In this document: positions 51,071 to 64,000 of the stretch, piece by piece
Layout of the letters: each line of letters opens with the position of its first letter
Numbering within the stretch: the stretch's first letter is position 1
DNA from: an uncultured Pseudomonadota bacterium
GTDB taxonomy: Bacteria > Pseudomonadota > Alphaproteobacteria > Rs-D84 > CACZYB01
Assembly: GCA_902785275.1 (NCBI GenBank)
Contig: CACZYB010000001.1
Coordinates: 64,001-128,000, forward strand
DNA: 64,000 nt
Reading direction: 5' to 3'
Position numbers and translations under genes: made by a program
The notes under the pieces: model-generated
Database searches by the model: none
What the model saw: the letters and a program-made list of their open reading frames with translations, nothing else
What the model was told of the DNA's origin: nothing

Positions 51071-51325
51071 TTATTTCATACCTTTTTTAATCATATTCTT
51101 TATAAAAGCCACAAGATACCTTTGACCCTCCAAAAATCTCAACTCAAAATCTGAAGAATTCGAAGATAAATATCTGTTTTGAGTTATTGAAATTAAATAC
51201 TCCAAAACTTTTCTGCCCGATTCGGTATTAAAAGTTTTTACAAAATAAATAGGCATAAGTTCTAAGTCTTTTTTAAAATCCTTTGATTCGAATAAATCAT
51301 ACATTCCTAATAAATCAGTTTTCAT
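51071..51325 (-). CDS. podovirus-like small protein (Bbp19-like), usually found next to the portal gene
   Basis: F...F....GRKVLEYL..IT...ELRFLEGQRYLV pattern; GAGGGG RBS. Confidence 0.6.
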   Translation of the reverse strand: MKTDLLGMYDLFESKDFKKDLELMPIYFVKTFNTESGRKVLEYLISITQNRYLSSNSSDFELRFLEGQRYLVAFIKNMIKKGMK

Positions 51326-51401: not shown

Positions 51402-52061
51402 TTATATAAAAATCTGTCCTGTCATCTTAAGTGACTTTGGAAAAGCTCTAACGCTACTCTTACCACTTACAAAAATATGACCATCGATAAAATTATTACC
51501 CAAGAAACTTAAACCATCAGAATTGATAAGATAAATATTTCCTATAACTTGAAAATTCTTTGGTATCTTAACAAAATTAATATCTTTAATATACAAATTA
51601 CCTTCTATCCTAACATTTGATTTAAGATATTTTAAATTTCCCTTTGTAAACAAAACATCACCATGAACAACAGTTGTTTTCTTTGCTGTCTTTTTATATT
51701 TTACAACTTTTGTTTTTTTCGAAGTCAAAACTTGCTTACGACAATTTTTTCCATTACAAAGCAATTTTGATTCACTTAAATATCTATCACCTGCAAATTT
51801 CTTAAGACCTGCAGAAAGAGGAATACTTCTTTCGAACACAATTTCTTCATCATAAACATAATTAAGCTTTGTTGGTCTGGAATAAGGTACAAAAATATTT
51901 TCTGGTTTATCTTCTTTATGTGCAGCGATATAAGCCCTAACTTCTGCTTTTTTAATTTCTTTTGCAGATTTTTTATAGGTTTTCATATAAATAAGTCCGC
52001 CCAAAATCATCAAAAATAATCCAGTAAAAACAAGTACATATCTTTTTTGTTCAGTATTCAT
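51402..52061 (-). CDS. membrane-anchored protein with C-terminal ~21-aa (V/I)xGx(L/I)x(I/L) solenoid repeats
   Basis: One N-terminal TM helix; VHGDVLF / IEGNLYI / VIGNIYL / IDGHIFV / MTGQIFI. Confidence 0.6.
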   Translation of the reverse strand: MNTEQKRYVLVFTGLFLMILGGLIYMKTYKKSAKEIKKAEVRAYIAAHKEDKPENIFVPYSRPTKLNYVYDEEIVFERSIPLSAGLKKFAGDRYLSESKLLCNGKNCRKQVLTSKKTKVVKYKKTAKKTTVVHGDVLFTKGNLKYLKSNVRIEGNLYIKDINFVKIPKNFQVIGNIYLINSDGLSFLGNNFIDGHIFVSGKSSVRAFPKSLKMTGQIFI

Positions 52062-52141
52062 AATATCACCTTTTGTTAAATTTATATCATAAATATAGCC
52101 CTAAATTATTTATTTGTCAACTATTTTGTTTAGTTTTTTTG

Positions 52142-53011
52142 TCATATTTTAAAATCTGTCCTTATTCTAAACGGAGCATTTGGCAATTTCCTTAAAATTC
52201 CAATTCTTCCGCCAACAATAACCGGCATTTTAACTGGCTGAGCCAAAATAGCCCCAGCCACACTATCCAAACCATCATCATGCACTTTACTGTCTACATT
52301 CCAGTCGGTAAATTCACCAATAAACGGTGTATCCTTCACACTTTCGTTCACCAAAAGATACCCCGCCGAAATAACCGCATCAAATGCATCCAAGATTCTA
52401 AGCTCCTTTGAAACCTTTGAATTTTTCGCCACAACCGAAACATTCATTCCATTTTTCAAAAGCTCTGTTTTTAAAAATTCAGGCAAAAATTTACCAATAC
52501 CATTACTTTCAACATTAACGGAGGGCACAAAATTTCTTTTCAAAAAAGAAACCACCCTTTCACATTGGTCACGTGCAGACTGTACATCCTCACAATCTTT
52601 AAAATAAAGATATTCCACATCGTGCAAATAATATCGGCCATCTTCATCAATAAAAACAACCGATATAACCGAACCATCACCATCTTTTGAACCATATGAC
52701 GGATCCCACCAACACGACACACTTATAATCTTTTTATCATTTATAGAAAATGAAAGCAGGCCATTTCTTTCCTCTCGTTTTAATTCCGAATTATAAAACA
52801 AAAGTTTCGAAACATCGAACCTTCCCTCTCTTATATCCACAGGACAAAGCATCATCTGGGATGAAAATTTTTTCATACCCACAGATTTTTTAAGTCTTTC
52901 TATTTTCTCCAACGGAAACTTTTCTGGCCAAACAGATTTTCCATTTTCAATTACCGGAATTTTTAATAAATCGTATCCAGCCAAAAAAGCATCAAACACA
53001 TCTTCATTCAT
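52142..53011 (-). CDS. phage large terminase, C-terminal nuclease half
   Basis: WPEKF, FSSQMML.P, WWDPSYG...D (RNase H Asp), VESNGIG, HDDGLDSVAGAI; no ATPase motifs; start overlaps the portal stop (ATGAATGA). Confidence 0.85.
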   Translation of the reverse strand: MNEDVFDAFLAGYDLLKIPVIENGKSVWPEKFPLEKIERLKKSVGMKKFSSQMMLCPVDIREGRFDVSKLLFYNSELKREERNGLLSFSINDKKIISVSCWWDPSYGSKDGDGSVISVVFIDEDGRYYLHDVEYLYFKDCEDVQSARDQCERVVSFLKRNFVPSVNVESNGIGKFLPEFLKTELLKNGMNVSVVAKNSKVSKELRILDAFDAVISAGYLLVNESVKDTPFIGEFTDWNVDSKVHDDGLDSVAGAILAQPVKMPVIVGGRIGILRKLPNAPFRIRTDFKI

Positions 53012-54515
53012 TTGCTTCTATCAAATTTTCCGGTACAGAAAAAGTCTTTGCAAGCCACAATGCAACCGCCTTTTTATCAATCAAAGAGCTTGCCTCTGTC
53101 CCAAGTTCAGAAAGAATTTTCACCCAACTTAAAATATTTTCGGCATCTCTTACAGCCTGATTCTTTGCCAAAGGAGATTGATATTTTAAATCGACTTCAT
53201 GCCCATCAACATAAATATCTGAGATTTCACCTCTACGTTTCAAAATTGAAACAGCCCTTAAAATAACTGGTGTTAAGAATTCAGATTGCAACCTACCATA
53301 TGTCGCACCCAAAACACGACTCATATGATTTGTTCGCTCCATAACTTCTGTTGCAGTCATTTTCGAAGAGTTAAAAGTATAAAGTTGATCAATAAGCAAA
53401 CTATGATTTATCTTTGACCTTAAATCAGAAAGTATCAACTGAGATACATCAAAATCTGCCCCAGTCCTAAGTGGTGTAAGTCCACTTGAGCCAACAGCCT
53501 TTGGTATAATTGTCCCAGGTGCAAGCGTAATATTTTCTATATTAAGTACACCATCATCATCCGCCTGCCACACACCACTTACTGCAATAGATGCATTTTT
53601 TAATATAAGCTCGACAACCTTGTTCGCTGTTTTGATATCAGGCAATGCAACCATAACCGGAGATCTTCCATAAACTTCGGATGGAACTTTCATCCACCTG
53701 AAACAAATAAACGGTGAAACAGAAAATACTCCAGATTTAAGTACAAATTTTTCACCCTTCCCGAACACATTATTTTCATCCAAAGCAAATGCAACATAAT
53801 TATATCCTTGTTGACCACAAGCAGTAATTCGTGGCAAAACAGCCTCTATCACAACAATTTTTTCATCCGGATTTTTGTTAATATATGAAAGCTGTCTGTC
53901 ATCCAAATCTAAGCCTAAAAATCTTTGCTTTAAATCAAAAAGAGAAAGGCAAGATTTTCTAAACACAGTATCCAACTTTCCATTAACATTTTCCTCTAAC
54001 GCAATTTCATTCATTGGCACAGCCGTAAATTTAAACGCAGATGTATCACCAACTTGGTTTTCTTCCATAAGCATAACCGCAGTACCAATAGTCACCAAAT
54101 CCAAATAACATTGATGCGCTTCCACATAAAAATTTGACTTATCAAAATGAGATTGCAAAGTCCTTTGAATTTTATCCAACTCCTTAAACTTTTCATTTTT
54201 TCCATCATAATCAGAATTATCCGCATCAACTCCAAACCCAAGCCCAAACCATTGTGACCATGGCGGTGTAAGCTCAGAAAGGATACTTCCCGCCAACTGA
54301 TTCGTTGCATTCAACGCCGTTGAATCATAAATGTCGGAAAACTTTTTCTTTGGGTTTTGCATACCACTGAAAATCCCACTTTTATGAGGCAAAGCATAGT
54401 TGTAACATTCATTCCAATCTTGCTCCCACTCTGATCTTTTATTCATCGCGACAATATATTTTTCGTAAACTTTCTCAAGTTCTATTTCATCGACAACATA
54501 TTTATTTTCAATCAT
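53004..54515 (-). CDS. podovirus (T7 gp8-like) portal / head-to-tail connector
   Basis: IYDSTA, LTPPWSQWF, RW...EVYGRSP...ALPD.K, MTATEV.ER, GRLQSEFL.P, YQSPLA; 503 aa. Confidence 0.9.
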   Translation of the reverse strand: MIENKYVVDEIELEKVYEKYIVAMNKRSEWEQDWNECYNYALPHKSGIFSGMQNPKKKFSDIYDSTALNATNQLAGSILSELTPPWSQWFGLGFGVDADNSDYDGKNEKFKELDKIQRTLQSHFDKSNFYVEAHQCYLDLVTIGTAVMLMEENQVGDTSAFKFTAVPMNEIALEENVNGKLDTVFRKSCLSLFDLKQRFLGLDLDDRQLSYINKNPDEKIVVIEAVLPRITACGQQGYNYVAFALDENNVFGKGEKFVLKSGVFSVSPFICFRWMKVPSEVYGRSPVMVALPDIKTANKVVELILKNASIAVSGVWQADDDGVLNIENITLAPGTIIPKAVGSSGLTPLRTGADFDVSQLILSDLRSKINHSLLIDQLYTFNSSKMTATEVMERTNHMSRVLGATYGRLQSEFLTPVILRAVSILKRRGEISDIYVDGHEVDLKYQSPLAKNQAVRDAENILSWVKILSELGTEASSLIDKKAVALWLAKTFSVPENLIEANE

Positions 54516-54538
54516 TTAAAACCTCTTTTTCTGAAATT

Positions 54539-54574
54539 AAAAAAAATCCCTCTAAGAAAAATTTCTTAAAGGGA
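54539..54574 (-). terminator. terminator of ftsZ, directly upstream of the portal gene
   Basis: TCCCTCTAAGAAA-AA-TTTCTTAAAGGGA hairpin with an A-run on +. Confidence 0.6.
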
Positions 54575-54596
54575 GTTAAAAAAATTTTTAAATAAA

Positions 54597-56348
54597 TTAC
54601 TTATTATTCTTCTTAAACATAGCAGGAATTTCCAAAGTTTCCTTCATCTTTTTCAACATTTCAATAAGGTCAGTTTGTTGAGCTTCATTCTTTTGCTCAT
54701 CCATACTTCCTGCTAAAAAGACAACATTATCTTCTTCATGTTTTTCCTGCTTTGCCGAAGCCTTAACCTCTAAATCTTTTTGTAAAGAAAGCTTTGAGTC
54801 ATCATCCCCAAAAGTTTCTACATCATCAAAGAAATTATCTTCTTTTGATTCGCCAAGCATATCAAAGAATGATGAAAGAGGACTTTTCTTTTTTCCATTT
54901 CCCCCTTCCGGAGTAGTAGGATCATCGTCACCATTATCATCATCTTTTTTCACATCTTCGACATTTTGATTTTTCTTAACAATCTCTTGTGCTTCACGAT
55001 TTATAAAATCATCAATGCTAAGAGATTCATTCTTTTTCATAAATGCATCAAAGCTGTTATCATCAATTTTTTCTTCAAACAAACCTGTTGGTTCAGTCTT
55101 TTCATTATCCAAGACAAGTTCATTTGTACCAAGCTCAGATATTGCAATTTCTGGCTCTTTTTCAAATGTTTCGTTATTTATTGGTAAAGGTTTTTCCTCA
55201 ACAATTTTTTCTTCTGATTTTGATGCGACATCAGATATATTTGCAAAATTTTTCACACTATTCATATCTGATACAGAAGAATAATTTTTAGTACCAGTCA
55301 AAGGTTCCTTCACACTTGAATAATTCATAAAATCATTGGAAAAAGAAACATTGTTTGATACTGCCTTTGAAAGTCCAGTCGCAATAATTGCAACCTTCAA
55401 ATTGTTACCCATATTTGCATCAAAGCATGTACCAAGGTAAAAGTTTGTTTCGTCGCCATCAATTTCACGTCTTATACTATTCATTACCTCTGCAGGTTCA
55501 TCCAACGAAAGATTTTCTGGGTTCGCAGTAATATTTACCAAAACAGATTTTGCCCCTCTAATATCATTACCGGAAAGCATAGGATTTTGCAAAACGCCAC
55601 TTACCGCCTTAATCGCCCTGTCATCCCCAGTCTGTATCGAAGTACCAATAAGTGTTCGGCCACTTTCTTCCATAACGGCACGAATATCGGCAAAATCCAA
55701 ATTAATTGTCCCTGGGATACGTATCAAATCAGTAATATTTTTTACCCCTTCATAAAGCACATTATCAGAAACCTTAAACGCATTCAAAAATGTCATCTGT
55801 TTTCCGGCAACATGATAAAGGTTCTGATTAGGAAGTATGATATAAGAGTCAACATTAGGAACCAATTTTGCAATCGCATCGTTTGCAATTTTTTCCTTTT
55901 TCTTTCCTTCAAATTCAAACGGAGTAGTAATAATTGCAACAGTCAAAATACCCTTTTCCCTAGCAAGTCCAGCAATCACCGGCATAGCACCACTTCCGGT
56001 ACCACCACCCATACCTGCGGTTAGGAAAAGAATGTTTGTATTTTTAATAATATCAGAAATTTCGCCACTTGATTCTTCGGCTGCCTTCTGACCAACTTCC
56101 GGTTTTGAACCAGCTCCAAAGCCTTTAGTAGTCTGCTTTCCAAGTTGTATTTTCTTTTCCGCCTTTGATTGAATAAGTGACTGAGCATCAGTATTTGCCA
56201 CAACAAAATCAACGCCATCAATGCCCTGACTAATCATATTATTTACGGCATTACAACCAGCACCACCAACACCCATCACGGTAATCTTTGGAATAAAATT
56301 TTGAATTTCATCATCCGCAGATTTATATCCGAAATTTCCTTCAATCAT
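54597..56348 (-). CDS. ftsZ: cell division protein FtsZ with a long acidic linker
   Basis: GVGGAGCNAVNNM, AGMGGGTGSGA, PFEFEG, NLDFAD, C-terminal LEIPAMF. Confidence 0.97.
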   Translation of the reverse strand: MIEGNFGYKSADDEIQNFIPKITVMGVGGAGCNAVNNMISQGIDGVDFVVANTDAQSLIQSKAEKKIQLGKQTTKGFGAGSKPEVGQKAAEESSGEISDIIKNTNILFLTAGMGGGTGSGAMPVIAGLAREKGILTVAIITTPFEFEGKKKEKIANDAIAKLVPNVDSYIILPNQNLYHVAGKQMTFLNAFKVSDNVLYEGVKNITDLIRIPGTINLDFADIRAVMEESGRTLIGTSIQTGDDRAIKAVSGVLQNPMLSGNDIRGAKSVLVNITANPENLSLDEPAEVMNSIRREIDGDETNFYLGTCFDANMGNNLKVAIIATGLSKAVSNNVSFSNDFMNYSSVKEPLTGTKNYSSVSDMNSVKNFANISDVASKSEEKIVEEKPLPINNETFEKEPEIAISELGTNELVLDNEKTEPTGLFEEKIDDNSFDAFMKKNESLSIDDFINREAQEIVKKNQNVEDVKKDDDNGDDDPTTPEGGNGKKKSPLSSFFDMLGESKEDNFFDDVETFGDDDSKLSLQKDLEVKASAKQEKHEEDNVVFLAGSMDEQKNEAQQTDLIEMLKKMKETLEIPAMFKKNNK

Positions 56349-56551
56349 AACATCCCCCTTTTAATTTCTGCTTTTATTATACCATAAAAAAAGACAAAAG
56401 TTAAGTGTATAAAGCAAAAAAATCGAAAATATTTTAATTGACTTTTTGATTTAAATTTGATTCTTAAAATTTTCCCAAAACAACACCATATACAAAAGAT
56501 AAAAAACACCCCAAACGAAAGTCGTTCAGGGGCGAAATAATTTAAAAAAAA

Positions 56552-57199
56552 TTACTCAGTCAATGTAATATAGCTAAGCGCCCTTTGACAATCATCCACA
56601 CTATCCATAAGAGAGGCAACCTTTGTAACCGAAGTTGCAGAAAGTGCAACCGTCGCCAAATTCGCACCTGTCGCAACACCCGAAGCAATAGTCGAACCCA
56701 AACGATAGTTTTTCAACTTTTTATTATCTTCTTCAAAACTTTGACTATCTATACCTTTACTTTTCTTATCATTTTTTTGTTCTGTTTTATTCTCACCTTC
56801 GGTTTGAGTAGCTTCTGCACTAGATTCACCCTCTCCGCCCTTAGTACTTTCTGTATCGGTTTGAGTAGCTTCTGCACCAGATTTATCATCTCCGCCCTTA
56901 GTACTTTCTGTATTAGATTTATCAAAATTTGTTTCAATCATTTTTCCAGACAATTTTGCCGCCTTAAAAGAAGCTACTGTACCAACACCACTCGCAGCCA
57001 ATGCAACACCCGAAGAAATAGAAGAACCAACAGACTTTGATTTAATATCATTCAATGCGTTTTTATCAAACACACATAATGAAAGTATCGCCTCAATATT
57101 TCCTGCCTGATTTTTAATCTTATCCGAGGAAAGTTTTGCCTTTGCCCCAACAGGAGCAACCAAACTCAAAACCAATAAAATCACATAAAATTTTCTCAT
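56552..57199 (-). CDS. secreted protein, paralog family B (single hairpin unit)
   Basis: Signal peptide; LCVFD...SGVALAASGVGTVASF...IASGVATGANLA...DDCQRAL; ATGA overlap with the upstream gene. Confidence 0.8.
   Translation of the reverse strand: MRKFYVILLVLSLVAPVGAKAKLSSDKIKNQAGNIEAILSLCVFDKNALNDIKSKSVGSSISSGVALAASGVGTVASFKAAKLSGKMIETNFDKSNTESTKGGDDKSGAEATQTDTESTKGGEGESSAEATQTEGENKTEQKNDKKSKGIDSQSFEEDNKKLKNYRLGSTIASGVATGANLATVALSATSVTKVASLMDSVDDCQRALSYITLTE
56799..56912. repeat. in-frame tandem repeat, 2 x 57 bp (TESTKGGxxxSxAEATQTx)
   Basis: TCGGTTTGAGTAGCTTCTGCAC occurs at 56799 and 56856; TCTCCGCCCTTAGTACTTTCTGTA recurs with the same 57-bp period. Confidence 0.9.
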
Positions 57200-58902
57200 T
57201 CTTCTTCTCCATAACTTTCAACTTCTGCCTTATATTCATTATAACGAAGTTTAAGAGTGTTAATTTTTGATTCACAATCCCTAAGATTTTCTGCTGCCTT
57301 TGCCGCAGTATTCACAGCATGAATAGAGAATATCAACGAACCACCGGATGTTGCAAATGCCCCAGCATTAAGTCCAACCTGTACCCAATCCAAAGTATGT
57401 GAAGTCTTTACAGAAGATATAACATTTTTCTCTAATTTTTTATTCTCTTCTGCCGCATTCTTTGCATTTTCAAGTTCAGAAATTCTATTATTTACAGCAG
57501 TTAAATTTGATGTATAAACATTATAATTATTATTTTCTTTTCTGAAATTTGAATTTCCTTCTGCACTATTCCAAATACGAACTTGTTCTTCATTTGCCTT
57601 TTTACTCAAAGTTTTATATTTTTCCTCTCTAGCTTTCTCAAACTCAGTCTTCGAAGCATAAGGCAAACCATAAGATGCAACCAAAGAATTACAACGTCCC
57701 GCATTATTGTTAATAATTTCTGAATTTTGACAATTATAATTTTCATCAAATTTACAAATCTTGCAAGATACTATCTTATCTCCTTTATCATTCCATTTAA
57801 GATTACCGTCATCATACATTTCAAAAACAAATTTATTAAATTCTGTATTTACCTTATTTATTTCTTTTTCTACTTTTTCAGGATCAAAACCTAAATTTTT
57901 CTCCTCTGCAATTATTTTTTCCTGTAACTTTGTTCTTGCATCCCTCAAACATGCTAAAGACATAATATTAACACTAGTCATAGGTTCAGAAGAAACTTCT
58001 ATCTTTTTTTCTTTAGGGCACTTTTCATCTTTATACAAATCTTCTGATATATCTTCTCTCACAACATTTTTCAATTCGTTTCTTTTTGAAAGGTTACGGT
58101 TGACTTCATTTGTCTTCATCACATTTAAAACACCGACACCGGTTGCACCCGCAGACAAAGCCATACCACCAGCAGAAAATCCAGTTGACCAACCCAAATC
58201 ACGTTTCAACTTTTCCATATCATCATATACCGAAGAACAAGCGGATTTTGCATCTGCCACAGCCTTAACAATCTTTGGCACATAATCACTTACATCAACA
58301 TAGTTTTCATAATTAAATTGCATATAGGCAACATCAATATCTGACCTTACAATCTTAACACGTCTTGGATACGCAAATTTACTCAACGCATCCTTTGATG
58401 CTTCCTTTAACTCCAAAGTATAGGAATAAGTTGCAAGCAAAGGTTCACATTCAAAACCTGCCTCTGCAGTCTTTGTCATAATTTCACCCGCAGTTGAAAT
58501 TCCAGTCAATGTCATATAAGGACCGAAACAAAGCTTTTCATTTATCCCCTCTGACCCATTTGTTTTATAGTATGTCAAAACACTAGGAAGGAACATTTCC
58601 CCCAAATCATACTTTGTATCATACTTAAGTTTTGTTTCATAGGTCATAGAGTCCGCAATAAATCTGTGTGTTGAGGAAGTTATATCAGTAGTCGAGCTTG
58701 AAGACGAACTTGACGATGAAGTAGTTCTCGAAGCTCTTAAACTATCCGAAGAAGCTGAAGAAGTTGAAGACGATGAAGCCTTAACCTTTGATGAACGTTT
58801 GGATGAACGACTTGAACGTTTTTTCTCTTTCTTTGCACTTGCATCAAACGCAAACCCAAGGCACAAAGCCAAAACCAAACTTGAAACTATAACTCTTCTC
58901 AT
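57196..58902 (-). CDS. secreted protein, paralog family B (single unit with a large insert)
   Basis: AGGAG RBS before ATG 58902; signal peptide; K/R/S tract; ACSSV...SAGGMALSAGATGVG...KTSHTLDWVQVGLNAGA...RDCESKI. Confidence 0.8.
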   Translation of the reverse strand: MRRVIVSSLVLALCLGFAFDASAKKEKKRSSRSSKRSSKVKASSSSTSSASSDSLRASRTTSSSSSSSSSTTDITSSTHRFIADSMTYETKLKYDTKYDLGEMFLPSVLTYYKTNGSEGINEKLCFGPYMTLTGISTAGEIMTKTAEAGFECEPLLATYSYTLELKEASKDALSKFAYPRRVKIVRSDIDVAYMQFNYENYVDVSDYVPKIVKAVADAKSACSSVYDDMEKLKRDLGWSTGFSAGGMALSAGATGVGVLNVMKTNEVNRNLSKRNELKNVVREDISEDLYKDEKCPKEKKIEVSSEPMTSVNIMSLACLRDARTKLQEKIIAEEKNLGFDPEKVEKEINKVNTEFNKFVFEMYDDGNLKWNDKGDKIVSCKICKFDENYNCQNSEIINNNAGRCNSLVASYGLPYASKTEFEKAREEKYKTLSKKANEEQVRIWNSAEGNSNFRKENNNYNVYTSNLTAVNNRISELENAKNAAEENKKLEKNVISSVKTSHTLDWVQVGLNAGAFATSGGSLIFSIHAVNTAAKAAENLRDCESKINTLKLRYNEYKAEVESYGEEE

Positions 58903-59029
58903 ACCATTTCTCCTATAAATATACTCCCATGATACCATATTTTTAGGCATTGGTCAAAGATATTATTACATTTTTTTACTTTTTTTGTTGCGTTTTTATA
59001 AAATATCGGTTATAAGATACAAGTCCGAT

Positions 59030-59105
59030 GGCGAGGTAGCTCAGTTGGTAGAGCAAAGGACTGAAAATCCTTGTGTCGGCAGTTCGATTCTGCCCCTAGC
59101 CACCA
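59030..59105 (+). tRNA. tRNA-Phe(GAA)
   Basis: GGCGAGGTAGCTCAGTTGGTAGAGCAAAGGACT-GAA-AATCCTTGTGTCGGCAGTTCGATTCTGCCCCTAGCCACCA, followed by a terminator hairpin. Confidence 0.96.
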
Positions 59106-59199
59106 TAAAATCACACCCCACATATCCTGTGGGGCGTTTTTTTAAGAAAAATACCAAAACAAATTCGGGATGCCGATTTTATTTATTTGGGATAACTAT

Positions 59200-60558
59200 C
59201 TAATACATCGGCATTTTTGGAATTACTGTCCTTACCCAAATATAGCCACCATCATCTTTATAATTATTATTCTCCTTATCAACCTTACTCGCATATTTTC
59301 CATTACTTCCTTTAACAACAGTACAAACATATAAAAAAACTTTATCCCTAGGAAAAGATTCTATTTCATTATTCACAAAATAGTTAGCCCTCGATCCAAA
59401 ACCGTACTCATTTGAAATTTCAAACTTGAAATATTCATCACATTTAGGCCCCTCTGCTACAAAATATTTATCATTTTCATCCTTCTGTTTATCATGAAAA
59501 GATGCCGGTCCACCCTTTCCACCAAATGCAACAACTATTTTCCCTGACTTTATGGCGGAATATTTTTCATCCAAATCTCCATTTACAACAAAATATGAAG
59601 ACCACCCATCTTCACCTGCACTACATTGTCCTCTTGCAAATCTTGCAGTCATACCAAGTTCATATTCAAGAATTGCTGTACCTGATTTCACACAAAAGGA
59701 TACTACTTTTTCTTCACCTCGGCTCCCCAATGTTCCCCACTGTGATTTACAGTTATTTGATGGAGATCCACCTGAACCGCTAATCAGAACGTCATAACAA
59801 CCAACAGGAAGCTGCAAATTTCCTTTTTTTGCAGGATAAACTTTGCCCGGCTCAGGATTTTCTTCTGTCGTTGCCACAAAGTAAATTTTTTCCTTAACAT
59901 TAATATACTTATATTTTTCTTCTTCGGAAATTTCAGATTCCTTCTTTTCCTCCACAGTATTATTTTGTTGCTGTGCCTGAGCAACATTTTCTTCTACCAC
60001 AGGCTCAACCTTTGTTTCTTGAGCAACCTCTTTTACTTCCTCTTTCTTCTCCTCAACAACTGGTGTTTCTTGAGTTGTTGTAACGGTAGTAGTTGTTGTT
60101 TCAGTTGTTTGAACCGACGTTGTATCAACCGTTTGTGCAGGGGCAGTCTCCTGAACAGAAGCGACCTCTTCTTTAACATCATAATTCACAGTCGAACTTG
60201 TATTCTTACTTTTGTTTGACGAAGTTGATGACTGTTTCTTTGTATTGGACTTTTTTGATAACTTAGTTTTAGTAGAATTTTTCTTCGAGCTTGCAGAACG
60301 TTTCGAAGATTTCGCCGAAGATGACTTCTTCGAACTTGCAGAACGTTTGGATGACTTGCTTACAGAATTTGATTTTCTACTGGACGCCGAACGTTTTGAT
60401 GAACTTACAGAGGATTGCCTCCTACCGGAAACATTTTTTCTTTTTGCCAAAGTATCAAAACTTAAAAAAATTGAAACAACAAAAATCGATAAAACTAAGA
60501 TTTTACCTATATTTGCAAGGAGTTTACCCCCCCCGATTCGTCTATTTTGTCCAAACAT
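59200..60558 (-). CDS. secreted protein: K/S repeats, T/E-rich stalk and a C-terminal glycine-rich domain
   Basis: Signal/TM segment; SSKRSASS(R/K)K three times; LPVGCYDVLISGSGG...GEDG.SS...VAFGGKGG. Confidence 0.7.
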   Translation of the reverse strand: MFGQNRRIGGGKLLANIGKILVLSIFVVSIFLSFDTLAKRKNVSGRRQSSVSSSKRSASSRKSNSVSKSSKRSASSKKSSSAKSSKRSASSKKNSTKTKLSKKSNTKKQSSTSSNKSKNTSSTVNYDVKEEVASVQETAPAQTVDTTSVQTTETTTTTVTTTQETPVVEEKKEEVKEVAQETKVEPVVEENVAQAQQQNNTVEEKKESEISEEEKYKYINVKEKIYFVATTEENPEPGKVYPAKKGNLQLPVGCYDVLISGSGGSPSNNCKSQWGTLGSRGEEKVVSFCVKSGTAILEYELGMTARFARGQCSAGEDGWSSYFVVNGDLDEKYSAIKSGKIVVAFGGKGGPASFHDKQKDENDKYFVAEGPKCDEYFKFEISNEYGFGSRANYFVNNEIESFPRDKVFLYVCTVVKGSNGKYASKVDKENNNYKDDGGYIWVRTVIPKMPMY

Positions 60559-60675
60559 TTTTAATCCCTTCTCTCTGTTTTATTATGCTAGCATTTTATC
60601 ATATTTTAGGAATATTTGCAAGTAGAAAAAATATTCCCCTCACGTCTTGAATAGGAAAATAATAAAAAGCAAAAC

Positions 60676-61060
60676 GAATCCCTATTTTCCCTACTTTTTA
60701 CCTAATTTACTCCATATAAAAAGAGAATCGGATTGACAAAAATATTTAATCACACAAAAACAACAAAAATCTCGAAAAAAAGTGAAAAAAATTGATTTTT
60801 TTATTTGCTATTTTCAAATTAAATTGCTAAAAAATATCTGTGTTTCAACCGATTCGAGAATCGATTCTCTTTTTTTGCAAAAGGAATCGCTTTTTTAGGT
60901 GCTTTTTCTAGTGGATTTCGCACTAGACAATTTAATTTTGCGAAAGAATCTTTAAATTTTTATCTGTTTGATTTTACAGTAAAATTCTTTGATTTTTCTC
61001 CTCAAAAAAGTTGCCAAAAAAAGAATCGCTTGACTTTTTTTGTCGAGTAGTTTAAGAATC
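60676..61060. promoter_or_regulatory. cluster of nine GANTC (CcrM-type) sites
   Basis: GAATC/GATTC at 60676, 60725, 60851, 60858, 60863, 60884, 60946, 61023 and 61056. Confidence 0.7.
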
Positions 61061-61064
61061 TGGT

Positions 61065-61175
61065 TATGAAACAAATTTGATATATATTTTTTTAAGTTTG
61101 TTTTCAAAGTTATTCCCTGTTGCGTTCCTTTTCTCTCCTTTCCTCCTTCTCTCCTCGCAACAGGGGATTTTTTTT
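61065..61175 (+). ncRNA. candidate sRNA 1 with an anti-SD pyrimidine loop (5' end approximate)
   Basis: Promoter TTGACT(61030)-17/18-TAAGAAT; 5' hairpin GAAACAAATTT...AAGTTTGTTTTC; 13-bp stem 61112-24/61156-68 closing a 31-nt all-C/U loop; U-tract. Confidence 0.6.
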
Positions 61176-61318
61176 GCTCTCATAAGAAATATTCGAGTAA
61201 ACAACCTTGTTCTCTTCTAAACTCCTCACTAACAACGTTCGTCGTTAAGGTATCACAAGGACGTTTTCTCTCCTCGCAACAGGGGATTTTTTGTTCTCAT
61301 AAGAAATATTCGAGTAAA
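61147..61318. repeat. ~54-bp imperfect direct repeat (61147-61201, 61266-61318) flanking a palindromic spacer
   Basis: TTCTCTCCTCGCAACAGGGGATTTTTT..G.TCTCATAAGAAATATTCGAGTAAA occurs twice. Confidence 0.85.
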
Positions 61319-61511
61319 ATAATATTTTTCCCATCAAAACTTAAAAATCATTTAAATGAGCTACAATAAACTTATTCCTATTAACAAATAAATTTTCACC
61401 CTTCCCCACAAACACATCCTACAATCAAAATAAAGCTATATAACAAAAGCTTTCTTTCAATAGCATATTTAAAATAAGGATTGCTGGTTTGTATACTCGA
61501 CTGGCTTCGAT

Positions 61512-61642
61512 AAAAAAATATCCCTTAAGTCGAGGAGAGAGAGAAAATAAGGAGGGAATGACTTAAGGGATCTACTGGCTTTCACCAGACTTGCCGAAAT
61601 GAGGGGTCGTCTCGGCAAATAGTGTTTTCGTATTAACGAATT
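61512..61642 (-). ncRNA. candidate sRNA 2 with an anti-SD pyrimidine loop (5' end approximate)
   Basis: Consensus promoter TTGACA(61676-71)-16-TATAAT(61654-49); hairpins TTGCCGAGA...TTTCGGCAA and CTGGT-GAAA-GCCAG; perfect 12-bp stem ATCCCTTAAGTC/GACTTAAGGGAT with loop ATTCCCTCCTTATTTTCTCTCTCTCCTC; U-tract. Confidence 0.7.
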
Positions 61643-61747
61643 GCTTTCATTATACAAATTGTTTTATCTTTGTCAATATATTTTTTGAAAAAAATTTATA
61701 TTTGTATAATATTTTAATTTTTTCCCGTAAAATCAATATGTTTTATT

Positions 61748-62347
61748 TTAAATTTTATAAATTGTATCCAAAGTATGTGGCGTTCCAATAAAAATTTGCA
61801 TCCCATCCGGCACCAAAATAAAGCTATATTCCAAAAGTTTTTCCCTCAAATCCTGCCTTTTTTGAAAAGAATCACAATTCTTTGGCACCTCAACATCATC
61901 ACAAATAATTACATCCGCCCTGCTTCCTGTAGCATTGGACATAAGCCCCACCGCCATCATAGATGGATCACGAAGGGCTTTGCTCCTTTCAACAGTAAAG
62001 CTTCCCGATGCCCACTCTGATTTTTTATGTGGGCGAATATTTTCCACCAAAGGAAAAGTTTCAATAATCTGTTTTACATTTCTTACCATCTTTCTTGCTA
62101 AAACAGAGTCCGCCGCCACAACCAAAATTCGTATATTGGGATTACGATACAAAAGCCACGCACAAAACACTCCAACAATAGTTGATTTTCCACTACTTCG
62201 AAAAGCCATCAAAAGTCCACGCCTACTATCCGACTTATCCACAGACGAAAGCCACCTTGCAATACGCAAATGATGCTCTGGCGTAGAAATACCTTGAAAT
62301 TTATTCCACAACAAAAGAAATTTTTCAAATTCAACTTTTCTTGCCAT
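61748..62347 (-). CDS. phage large terminase, N-terminal ATPase half (T7 gp19-like)
   Basis: Walker A AFRSSGKST, TGSRADVIICDDVE (Walker B), motif III GTPH, then a stop 8 residues later. Confidence 0.9.
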   Translation of the reverse strand: MARKVEFEKFLLLWNKFQGISTPEHHLRIARWLSSVDKSDSRRGLLMAFRSSGKSTIVGVFCAWLLYRNPNIRILVVAADSVLARKMVRNVKQIIETFPLVENIRPHKKSEWASGSFTVERSKALRDPSMMAVGLMSNATGSRADVIICDDVEVPKNCDSFQKRQDLREKLLEYSFILVPDGMQIFIGTPHTLDTIYKI

Positions 62348-62352
62348 TTTAC

Positions 62353-62772
62353 TTAAACAATATCACCAAAAGAATTCAAAAGGTTCAATCCATTCTTTCT
62401 TATATTTAAAAGATTTTTGTTTTTCTTATAGTTATAATTTATTTCATTAGATGACAAAGCCAAATCAGAAAAATATTCCTTATTTTTAATTTCATCATCA
62501 GCTTCACGTTCCATACTTCCAATCAAAACAGCCGAAGATCCATCGGTAAAGTCAACACCATTTGCTGCCATTTTTGCTTTCCGTGTTGCAATTTTTGATT
62601 TAAGAAGATCTTGTTTTTCCTTTTCATAAAGCTCTTGCTTTTTCTTCAAAGTATCTTCTTGAATTTTTGCTTCTTGCTTAGCTATATTTTTCTCTTTCTT
62701 TGCATTTTTAATATCTAAAACAGTTTTTGCAGTAGAAATAACTCCACCCAAAACCGCAGCAGTAGTTCCCAT
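62353..62772 (-). CDS. putative podovirus internal virion / ejection protein
   Basis: G/A-rich N-terminus, coiled coil, AANGVDFTDGSS motif; lies between the tail tubular B and terminase genes. Confidence 0.55.
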   Translation of the reverse strand: MGTTAAVLGGVISTAKTVLDIKNAKKEKNIAKQEAKIQEDTLKKKQELYEKEKQDLLKSKIATRKAKMAANGVDFTDGSSAVLIGSMEREADDEIKNKEYFSDLALSSNEINYNYKKNKNLLNIRKNGLNLLNSFGDIV

Positions 62773-62783
62773 ATTTAAACCTC

Positions 62784-64000
62784 CTATCTTATAACATCAA
62801 CCAACATTGACATATTTAAAATTTTTAATTTATAAGGTTCTGACCCTTGAATTTTAAACAAAGGCAACTCATAGTTTTTAATAAAACCTTTTCCTCTTAT
62901 CTTCACATCTCCCGAAAAATATTCACCATTGTTTAAGTTTATAATCTTAAGCCCAGCCCCAGTATCCACCTGAAGCATTTGTGAATCCATCAACCTTAAA
63001 TTAAGTTCCAAAAGTCTTACCGCTTTTGGAATAAAGCTTGAACCCACAAAAACAGGTAAAGGACAAAAGACGTGCTTAAAAGGAAGACCAATAACAATAT
63101 TTTTACAAGGTTTCGGCAAATTAATTTCATTATCTTCAACCTTCAGTTTATAAATTTCTCCATCAGCAATAACCGTAACATCTTTATCATTCAAAAAACC
63201 TAAATCACTCACAGTTGTAACCGCCTCATCAAAAACAAATGTCTTTGCACAATCAAGATTATAATCATAATCGAACACTTCCAAACTGTACATTCCATTA
63301 CGTTCCACAACTACATAAGTTTTATCAAAAACGACCGCCACAGATAAAAACTTTCCATCCGTTTTGTATTGCACCCACGCATTTATATTATGAGACTTGT
63401 TTGAAAGTAACACTGCCAAAGTTCCATCTTCCTGTACAACATAAAGTATTCTTTTCTTCACATTAAAATCTTGCTCTAATGGATTACTAAGCAAATGTGA
63501 AGACAGTAAAATCAAATCTTGCGAAGAATAATTTTCAGAAAGATCCCCATAAAAAAATTCACGTATTTCCTTTTTATTTCTTGCTATAAATATAGTCGAC
63601 CCCTCCACAAATTTCGGTGCAATATATCTATCCGAAACAGAACCTATCTTTGTTTGTTGGGTCACGGAAATATTTGACGGAGTAATTGGGTTACCCGTAA
63701 TCATCCACTCTGCATCCGAAGTAAACACCTGAAGATGACGACCCGAAAACACAGAAACAATTTGATTAACTTTATCGGAAAAGATATCAAATTCTATCGC
63801 TTCATCATCAAGCCCAGTTCCCAAATCAAAATTTAGATAATTTCCAATTTTTGAAAACCATAATCTATTTTTCAAAGATTTCGACCCACCAATAACAAGC
63901 CTATTTTGATAAAATGCAATACTTGATGGATACCCACGTTTATTTGAAAAAGCAGGTTCTTGCCAATCCATATCTGCATCTGTTGATTTCAATTCTACCA
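62784..64000 (-). CDS. podovirus tail tubular protein B (T7 gp12-like); 5' end outside the window
   Basis: GYPSSIAFYQNRLVIGG...LWFSKIGNYLNF...DDEAI, LQVFTSDAEW, NAW. The frame is open to the window edge (VELKST...). Confidence 0.85.
   Translation of the reverse strand, partial: VELKSTDADMDWQEPAFSNKRGYPSSIAFYQNRLVIGGSKSLKNRLWFSKIGNYLNFDLGTGLDDEAIEFDIFSDKVNQIVSVFSGRHLQVFTSDAEWMITGNPITPSNISVTQQTKIGSVSDRYIAPKFVEGSTIFIARNKKEIREFFYGDLSENYSSQDLILLSSHLLSNPLEQDFNVKKRILYVVQEDGTLAVLLSNKSHNINAWVQYKTDGKFLSVAVVFDKTYVVVERNGMYSLEVFDYDYNLDCAKTFVFDEAVTTVSDLGFLNDKDVTVIADGEIYKLKVEDNEINLPKPCKNIVIGLPFKHVFCPLPVFVGSSFIPKAVRLLELNLRLMDSQMLQVDTGAGLKIINLNNGEYFSGDVKIRGKGFIKNYELPLFKIQGSEPYKLKILNMSMLVDVIR

Follow-up and report, generated by a model that had tools for sequence, protein, structure and literature searches.

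We analysed a 64,000-nt stretch (hereafter the window; contig CACZYB010000001.1, positions 64,001 to 128,000) from a gut alphaproteobacterium of the order Rs-D84, whose genome comprises 1.05 Mb in 18 contigs. The end of the window carries genes of a T7-like head, tail and packaging module in which the large terminase (TerL) is encoded by two separate genes. The first, TerL-N (61748..62347, minus strand, 199 amino acids (aa)), encodes the ATPase core, with Walker A (AFRSSGKST, residues 48-56), Walker B and the catalytic glutamate (ADVIICDDVE, 144-153) and motif III (GTPH, 188-191), and stops 8 residues after GTPH. The second, TerL-C (52142..53011, minus strand, 289 aa), contains the motifs AFLAGY (residues 8-13) and WPEKF (28-32) followed by the nuclease motifs WDPSYG (102-107), VESNG (167-171) and HDDGLD (244-249). 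TerL-N starts 5 nt past the stop of the preceding virion gene, the start of TerL-C overlaps the portal stop as ATGAATGA, and 8,736 nt separate the TerL-N stop from the TerL-C start. This interval holds the sole ftsZ match of the genome (54597..56348, minus strand; TIGR00065, 344 bits), a tRNA-Phe gene (GAA anticodon; 59030..59105, plus strand), three secreted-protein genes and the portal gene (T7 gp8-type head-to-tail connector, 503 aa; 53004..54515, minus strand; PF12236, 400 bits, the single match in the genome).

The two genes correspond to consecutive parts of one protein family. Against the NCBIfam model for T7-type TerL (NF033889, 500 positions), TerL-N matched positions 1-189 (259 bits, E = 7e-77) and TerL-C positions 232-500 (127 bits, E = 1e-36); given the curated cut-off of 150 bits, the former lies above it and the latter, taken alone, below. 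Matches of such strength far exceed what chance would give. The same order was seen in PHROG 38 (760 positions; TerL-N at 270-458 and TerL-C at 482-705), and TerL-C also scored above the cut-offs of PF22530 (27.8 bits) and PF17289 (23.9 bits). A phmmer search of TerL-C against PDB sequences gave no meaningful match. These two were the only T7-type TerL matches that a profile search returned from the 1.05-Mb genome, and a separate middle piece located elsewhere was rejected, as tblastn with the middle of two phage TerLs (E up to 10) matched only the TerL-N end. Because the two open reading frames (ORFs) cover one TerL family end to end, they are complementary halves of one T7-type TerL, both intact, with the ATPase motifs of the family in one protein and its RNase H-like nuclease in the other rather than in a single polypeptide. 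The initial annotation of this locus had described an ATPase-only half with three motifs that stops shortly after GTPH, a second half with the nuclease motifs, the absence of a frameshift from either and the 5-nt spacing of TerL-N from its upstream neighbor, all of which we found to be correct.

Outside Rs-D84, the gene is found unsplit. In a sample of 401 Alphaproteobacteria, 60 genomes exceeded the family cut-off, comprising 4 from Rs-D84 and 56 of the 397 others. The best match was an uninterrupted frame in 55 of these 56, spanning the whole model in 52 and part of it in 3. One candidate for a second split outside the order (G224, L150:10080-10200) was rejected, since a run of 10 N, located exactly at the junction region of that assembly, accounts for it. 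The intact alphaproteobacterial TerL is a single gene of ~490-510 aa (identity 52-59% in the N part and 38-44% in the C part), and the Rs-D84 form derives from this unsplit state. When the halves were aligned to five intact relatives, the join proved gap-free, as a clean fission predicts: TerL-N ends and TerL-C begins inside a loop of ~10 residues (…IYATEPR / MEIGEVQPFLFGY…), with nothing missing. Compared with the TerL of phage Piluca (558 aa), the halves seem to have ~55 residues fewer, and between motif III and the nuclease the alphaproteobacterial TerLs as a whole, whether intact or split, fall about 52-56 residues short of their phage counterparts. Because the intact alphaproteobacterial genes are without the same residues, this shortfall is a trait of the lineage and not a product of the split.

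Genes of the same particle type accompany the intact TerL. Upstream of it, capsid, tail-tube A and tail-tube B genes were present in five of six neighborhoods (tail-tube B in all six), and a p93-like gene lay nearby in five; the capsids of the five loci having one were 56-60% identical to the window's protein. Portal and scaffold genes stood beside these in one of the six neighborhoods, and the locus end of a second carried a scaffold gene together with a portal fragment. In both annotated loci a cell-wall hydrolase gene follows TerL, with host genes flanking the module, and no integrase or replication gene was recognised in their 20-kb stretches, where several ORFs are unnamed. One of the two has, after the hydrolase, a PF11351 gene ('GTA holin of 3 TMs'; L148:12457-12990) and then host genes. 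The intact hits cluster by host family, with three each in f29, f62, f93, f97 and f118 (all three genomes of f29), and one small alphaproteobacterial order had the intact module TerL in five of six genomes. An order-level search around the closest intact relative (G145) returned G145 as the sole genome. The unsplit T7-like module may be an element domesticated across the class or, alternatively, a very widespread prophage.

Within Rs-D84, we sampled 41 genomes, including that of the window (G000), from 14 genera and six families, f1 being the window's own family and g1 its genus. A TerL match of any kind was found in 37 of the 41; both halves were present as separate pieces in 32 and an uninterrupted full-length frame in none. 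A single hit that covered both halves (G020) spans a spacer with nine stops. The position of the cut is constant: throughout the Rs-D84 sequences, the TerL-N stop lies 2-9 residues past a conserved 'IY' and TerL-C starts a few residues before FLxG(Y/F).

The distance between the halves, by comparison, varies among families. In f2, f3 and f5 they are 200-570 bp apart, with a stop-rich spacer that gave no intron match; a tRNA gene, ftsZ and the portal lie downstream of the halves in the f5 and f2 loci, and a tRNA gene and the portal in the f3 locus, where no ftsZ was found. Across other-family loci, a tRNA gene was 180-880 nt from ftsZ in three of five scanned, and a fourth tRNA-bearing locus was the one with no ftsZ found. 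In f4 (Ca. Enterousia), a uniform opposite-strand block of 3.3-3.4 kb separates the halves, with the portal following TerL-C; in the one locus whose ORFs were read (L125, a circular metaFlye long-read assembly), the block contains dnaB, an XRE-type regulator and a 224-aa gene. This arrangement recurred in all 66 Enterousia-type loci with both halves, L125 included. Family f1 mostly has the order TerL-N, (tRNA), ftsZ, portal, TerL-C, equivalent to an exchange of two neighboring blocks, one running from TerL-C to a 219-aa membrane-anchored protein gene and the other holding tRNA, ftsZ and portal; the exception is G007, with portal, TerL-C and then TerL-N ~3.3 kb downstream. The window's closest kin within g1 have, in addition, secreted-protein genes around the tRNA. 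In a set of 80 related loci, which overlaps the sampled genomes and is not independent of them, 70 had both halves 3.0-5.2 kb apart and 10 were cut by locus or contig ends. In f6, the module of G023 (L031) is rearranged, with TerL-N abutting the portal (matches overlap by 2 nt) and no TerL-C detectable, and the other two genomes have at most a remnant (stop-interrupted in G027; no match in G030).

Because the outgroup has one intact gene, adjacency of the halves was likely the first state after the cut and the 8.7-kb distance a later one. The initial annotation had presented a separation of ~8.7 kb and an overlap of TerL-C with the portal as properties of the split; both are real in the window. 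The separation is secondary, however, and the overlap is not kept even within f1, where TerL-C may overlap or directly follow the portal (G011) or start a few to ~25 nt (G005, G007 and G017) or ~125 nt (G016) after it; in Ca. Enterousia the order is reversed, and the two lie apart in f2, f3 and f5. Both features are later, lineage-specific rearrangements. A paper on reduced gut genomes (PMC12306168), which helps to place these organisms among Candidatus Enterousia and relatives, describes genome reduction as shared throughout the order; the words phage, capsid and terminase do not occur in it.

Both halves have been retained under selection. Alignments of 26 sequences had 36 invariant columns in TerL-N, including GKS, CDDVE and GTP, and 26 in TerL-C, including WDP, E-NG-G and DD-LD; the nuclease acidic residues D103, E168, D245, D246 and D249 are invariant, and the catalytic motifs (Walker A, Walker B, motif III and nuclease acidics) are unchanged across the six families. 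We compared G000 with five congeners by the Nei-Gojobori method, obtaining ratios of nonsynonymous to synonymous substitution (dN/dS) of 0.11-0.20 for TerL-N, 0.13-0.26 for TerL-C, 0.09-0.17 for the capsid, 0.10-0.24 for the portal and 0.04-0.16 for the ftsZ core, values that are rough because dS was 0.6-1.9 and near saturation. Within-genus medians were 0.12 for TerL-N (47 usable of 61 pairs) and 0.16 for TerL-C (87 of 122). Purifying selection close to that on the ftsZ core acts on the portal, the scaffold, the capsid and the two tail-tube proteins as well as on each terminase half. Conservation in TerL-C extends beyond the nuclease: residues 9-32 are conserved despite lying outside its fold, and the C-terminal tail (…TDFKI) is shared by split halves, intact relatives and phage TerLs. 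In T3 and T7 this tail presumably binds the prohead or portal.

Phylogenetically, a single clade unites the TerL-C halves (SH-aLRT 99), and its neighbor is the intact TerL of an alphaproteobacterium with a 1.1-Mb genome. The TerL-N tree lacks resolution in its deep branches, and two long T7-like sequences fall within the group, so that this tree is silent on the sister group. The two trees recover the same subclades and host-family groups, and the halves therefore do not stem from different phages, an origin that the initial annotation had named as one way in which its proposal could fail. Its central claim, a clean and maintained gene fission, holds: the halves are intact, their motifs invariant, their dN/dS well below 1 and their origin shared, and independent assemblies agree. 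The data show that the gene was split, that the split is old and conserved, and that each half is under selection.

The cut itself is predicted to fall inside the ATPase fold. The AlphaFold model of TerL-N (mean predicted local distance difference test score (pLDDT) 89.7) resembles PhiV-1 TerL (8DGC_E; TM-score 0.84, 35% identity), has five strands and ends just past the motif III strand; solved TerL ATPase domains (P74-26 entries) have 250-258 residues compared to its 199. In the TerL-C model (pLDDT 79), an RNase H-like domain is predicted with confidence from about residue 70 to 260, and Foldseek matched TerL-C to 8DGC_E and TerL nuclease domains; the first 30 residues of TerL-C, folded alone, were of low confidence and yet are among the best conserved. 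Modeling of the two chains together gave a complex with a score of 0.90 compared to 0.01 for the best of three controls. Of solved complexes, 58 of 80 attain the score mark applied, as do 2 of 110 mismatched pairs; custom alignments were used, the runs agreed in at least 94% of contacts and partner pLDDT was at least 74. In the predicted complex, TerL-C residues 8-20 lie against the TerL-N strand before the P-loop (43-49), with 13-20 pairing to it, and residues 27-31 and 51-59 touch TerL-N residues 186-199. We take the docking strand to be 'β5' of the additional strand, catalytic glutamate (ASCE) fold.

From the complex prediction and the conservation pattern combined, we read the cut as lying within the ATPase fold, with TerL-C predicted to supply an edge strand beside the P-loop strand and lid-like helices. 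The initial annotation had instead placed the cut at the hinge between ATPase and nuclease and suggested that cutting and pumping could be expressed separately. The model disagrees on both counts: the conserved first ~60 residues of TerL-C are predicted to dock on the ATPase sheet, and the two chains, a putative TerL-N/TerL-C heterodimer, to depend on each other rather than act separately.

The element that encodes this terminase is a vertically inherited chromosomal, stripped-down T7-like head, tail and packaging module. It is not a phage, because host genes lie inside it and it is inherited vertically: synteny is retained with the host ftsZ, dnaB and tRNA genes within the module and the trees follow host families, so that particle genes are fixed in the chromosome and transmitted vertically across a host clade, as in gene transfer agents (GTAs). 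No replication, integration or lysogeny genes were recognised in the ORFs scanned, covering the last 14 kb of the window and 7.5 kb beyond, where several small ORFs are unnamed. A GTA-like device would fit the host-embedded layout, the selection acting on each particle gene and the lack of recognised genes for replication or integration, and the module most likely makes GTA-like particles; that particles are produced, and which kind of DNA they would package, is our inference. In IMG/VR, 58 contigs (L153-L210) encode the module's capsid, many of them ~10 kb long and starting exactly at the capsid gene; none longer than 14 kb was found at an identity of at least 66%. These contigs look like automatic provirus calls on the chromosomal module. 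An unannotated 5,084-bp sequence from a fecal study (MT838907.1, 'Bacteriophage sp.'; L152) encodes a capsid 60% identical to the window's.

We consider it fairly probable that these observations reflect an ancestral terL fission that gave rise to a two-chain terminase of a chromosomally fixed, T7-like and GTA-like module. The intact ~500-aa terL of such a module would have been cut, in the Rs-D84 ancestor, within a short loop at the surface, immediately past the motif III strand, and the pieces thereafter inherited as separate genes that later rearrangements moved apart; in the window's genus, the block of tRNA-Phe, ftsZ and portal and the three secreted-protein genes would have come between them. 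TerL-N would provide the P-loop ATPase core, and TerL-C an N-terminal strand and helices (residues ~8-60), the RNase H-like nuclease and the C-terminal tail. Reassembled by strand complementation, the two-subunit terminase would sit on the portal, pump and cut DNA and fill the module's capsids. A bolder version holds that the ATPase core was divided so that it folds and fires only with the strand of the second chain, which would also bring the nuclease and the presumed portal-binding tail, as a built-in assembly switch of a podovirus-derived GTA whose unsplit form is present, unrecognised, family by family through much of the Alphaproteobacteria; this version we put forward tentatively, as possible but on balance improbable.

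Several observations weigh against the two-chain, GTA-like explanation. TerL-N alone was found in 2 of the 41 Rs-D84 genomes (G023, 99% complete, and G018, 70% complete), TerL-C alone in 2 (G002 and G003, 93-94% complete) and neither half in 5, with no match in G006, G027, G030 and G031 and just a weak match to another terminase in G028. Profile searches of these genomes at E 0.01 upheld the absences, save for the remnant in G027. Such cases may be assembly gaps or real losses; if G023 is truly without TerL-C, TerL-N persists there alone. The module ORFs scanned yielded no small terminase, tail fibre or ejection protein, and the PF11351 holin had no match in the window's genome, nor in the control genomes. 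The heterodimer is one structure prediction, whose pass may reflect likeness to solved intact TerLs; the near-saturated dS blunts the selection estimates; and the GTA-like particles are putative.

Some of these observations are shared with other explanations. The halves might work independently, TerL-N as a stand-alone packaging ATPase, as in phi29, where the motor is without a nuclease domain, and TerL-C as a free endonuclease or portal-binding factor produced along with the portal, in line with the separately expressed activities proposed in the initial annotation. G023, which keeps TerL-N with intact motifs, is in line with this, as is the placement in the window's genus, where TerL-C overlaps the portal stop and TerL-N stands, by consensus scans, at the end of another operon. 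We nonetheless consider independence unlikely, given that the first ~60 residues of TerL-C are among the most conserved while lying outside the nuclease fold and are predicted to dock on the ATPase sheet, that TerL-N is ~55 residues shorter than solved TerL ATPase domains, and that the adjacency of portal and TerL-C is not kept across families. Slightly less probable still is that the module has been kept for another cell function, or is slowly decaying in some lineages, in which case the split would have no mechanistic meaning. The losses in f6 and the lack of recognised fibre, ejection and small-terminase genes would fit such a course; they have to be set against purifying selection near the ftsZ-core level on all particle genes tested and against ATP-hydrolysis and DNA-cutting residues that are invariant across six families, which is hard to explain unless DNA is packaged.

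Restoration of one polypeptide after transcription or translation might proceed through a self-splicing intron, a split intein or recoding, and intron-split terL genes have precedent. In the T7-like phages phD2B and K1E, terL was reported as two ORFs that together encode the full protein, suggested to be exons around an intron with a homing-endonuclease gene that yield one protein (PMC4246154), and the half-length PHROG families phrog_4758 and phrog_5573 match each of the halves described here. In Rs-D84, by contrast, no intron was found, host genes lie between the halves and two proteins are stably inherited. Rfam matched nothing but tRNAs between the halves, both here and in five loci with adjacent halves; stop codons crowd every frame of the short spacers; three opposite-strand genes, including dnaB, intervene in Ca. 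Enterousia; and the two halves add up to the length of their intact relatives, leaving no room for intein pieces. We therefore regard restoration as very improbable. An assembly artefact, with the halves adjacent or fused in the real genome, is the least probable explanation of all. Logan contigs of the probable source sample break at the tRNA-Phe gene and at 60530-60538, the 5' end of a 452-aa secreted-protein gene, and none bridges TerL-N to TerL-C; since these breaks coincide with a tRNA gene and a repeat, they carry no weight for or against contiguity. Assemblies from other records agree with the window, showing TerL-N, the secreted genes and ftsZ (L060), these plus the portal (L061 and L062) or the series TerL-N, ftsZ, portal and TerL-C (L064-L067). 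Moreover, the Enterousia form is seen in a circular long-read assembly, and TerL-N has its own conserved stop in every genome.

The remaining features of the locus frame this picture. All protein-coding module genes in the window are on the minus strand, with tRNA-Phe alone on the plus strand, and the remainder of the window consists of ordinary host genes (def, fmt, truA, der and rmuC). The C-terminal part of tail tubular protein B (T7 gp12-like; 62784..64000, minus strand; PHROG 376 tail protein, E = 5e-75) crosses the window end; the full-length protein has 625 aa and is kept in all 16 related loci compared. Between it and TerL-N, directly upstream of the latter, lies a small internal-virion-protein-like gene (62353..62772, minus strand, 139 aa; PHROG 418, E = 5e-7), whose orthologues, in the related loci searched, are confined to f1. 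Past the window end, the same strand continues with genes for tail-tube A and the major capsid protein (PF19821); two unnamed genes, a scaffold gene of T7 type, a gene for a cell-wall hydrolase and one further small, conserved gene are located there as well. One of the two unnamed genes, located between scaffold and capsid (L023:3081-3527, minus strand), is Lys/Ala-rich and histone-H1-like (PF07382, E = 4e-13). TerL-N is the last gene of this long structural operon, and TerL-C is probably made together with the portal in the window's genus.

Downstream of TerL-N is a 1.2-kb stretch without long ORFs (60559..61747) that holds a -35/-10 consensus and hairpin repeats and gave no Rfam match. A perfect TTGACA-16-TATAAT (61676..61649, minus strand) lies in it 72 nt downstream of the TerL-N stop, facing the ORF-free sequence, and an 11/12 match to the promoter consensus follows directly after the TerL-C stop (52120..52092). 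A repeat of ~55 nt occurs there in two copies 117-119 nt apart (61147-61318) with a terminator-like hairpin on the plus strand, and 61509-61540 is a partly complementary copy. Overall, terminator-like hairpins follow ftsZ and the secreted-protein genes and strong promoter-like sites follow TerL-N and TerL-C, all as pattern matches from consensus scans. Three secreted-protein genes flank tRNA-Phe (56552-60558), and for two of them the searches returned orthologues solely from the closest congeners, bar one weak match. The Ser/Lys-rich 452-aa protein (59200..60558, minus strand) has no Pfam match and no orthologue by tblastn in 16 or in 80 related loci; the Ser-rich 584-aa protein (57196..58950, minus strand) is an insert of the window's genus with the weak match in genus g2 (G014); and the 215-aa protein (56552..57199, minus strand) is a genus-specific insert. 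Beyond TerL-C, the conserved 219-aa membrane-anchored protein (p219; 51402..52061, minus strand) accompanies the module, with orthologues in f1, f2 and f3 loci, a dN/dS of 0.13-0.33 and no family match in Pfam and PHROG scans, and a conserved 84-aa protein gene (51071..51325, minus strand) adjoins the portal in Ca. Enterousia.

Compared with known systems, the Rs-D84 terminase shares the ATPase core, RNase H-like nuclease and motifs of T7-type TerL (T7 gp19 and PhiV-1 TerL; PDB 8DGC and 4BIJ; NF033889), and its TerL-C shares an xDFx C-terminal tail with the TerLs of phages Piluca and Acinetobacter phage MD-2021a; it differs in being encoded by two genes instead of one, and in the shorter form of its lineage. 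The module, whose particles and DNA transfer are putative, differs from described GTAs in this split terminase and in its T7-type parts (PF12236 portal, PF19821 capsid and gp11/gp12-like tail); the parts of RcGTA are of the HK97/siphovirus type. GTAs of the RcGTA type and the podovirus-like FpGTA of Faecalibacterium (PMC12946183) likewise consist of structural and packaging genes of phage origin, with no replication or integration genes recognised among them, and are chromosomal, vertically inherited and under purifying selection; RcGTA-type elements are reported from reduced endosymbionts (PMC9254644). BaGTA was rejected as the same element, since the gene sizes and order reported for it differ (447-aa TerL beside a 620-aa portal; PMC3610622). 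None of the full texts searched, exclusive of supplementary files, described a naturally split TerL or a domesticated module of T7 type from Rs-D84, and a true fission of TerL inside a domesticated phage particle module would be a variant that we did not find in print.

Large terminases are usually treated as single two-domain enzymes, and the split terL genes that we found in print were read by their authors as intron-interrupted. With the cut predicted to lie within the ATPase domain, a stable fission throughout an order would offer a natural experiment on motor folding, on assembly at the portal and on the coupling of pumping to cutting. The module is a complete yet stripped-down T7-like particle set held under housekeeping-level constraint in genomes of ~1 Mb or less that have lost most biosynthesis. 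Because a particle set is so constrained in such reduced genomes, it is a strong candidate for a second, podovirus-type GTA lineage in the Alphaproteobacteria, and the occurrence of the intact form across many further families of the class points to a phenomenon much wider than Rs-D84.

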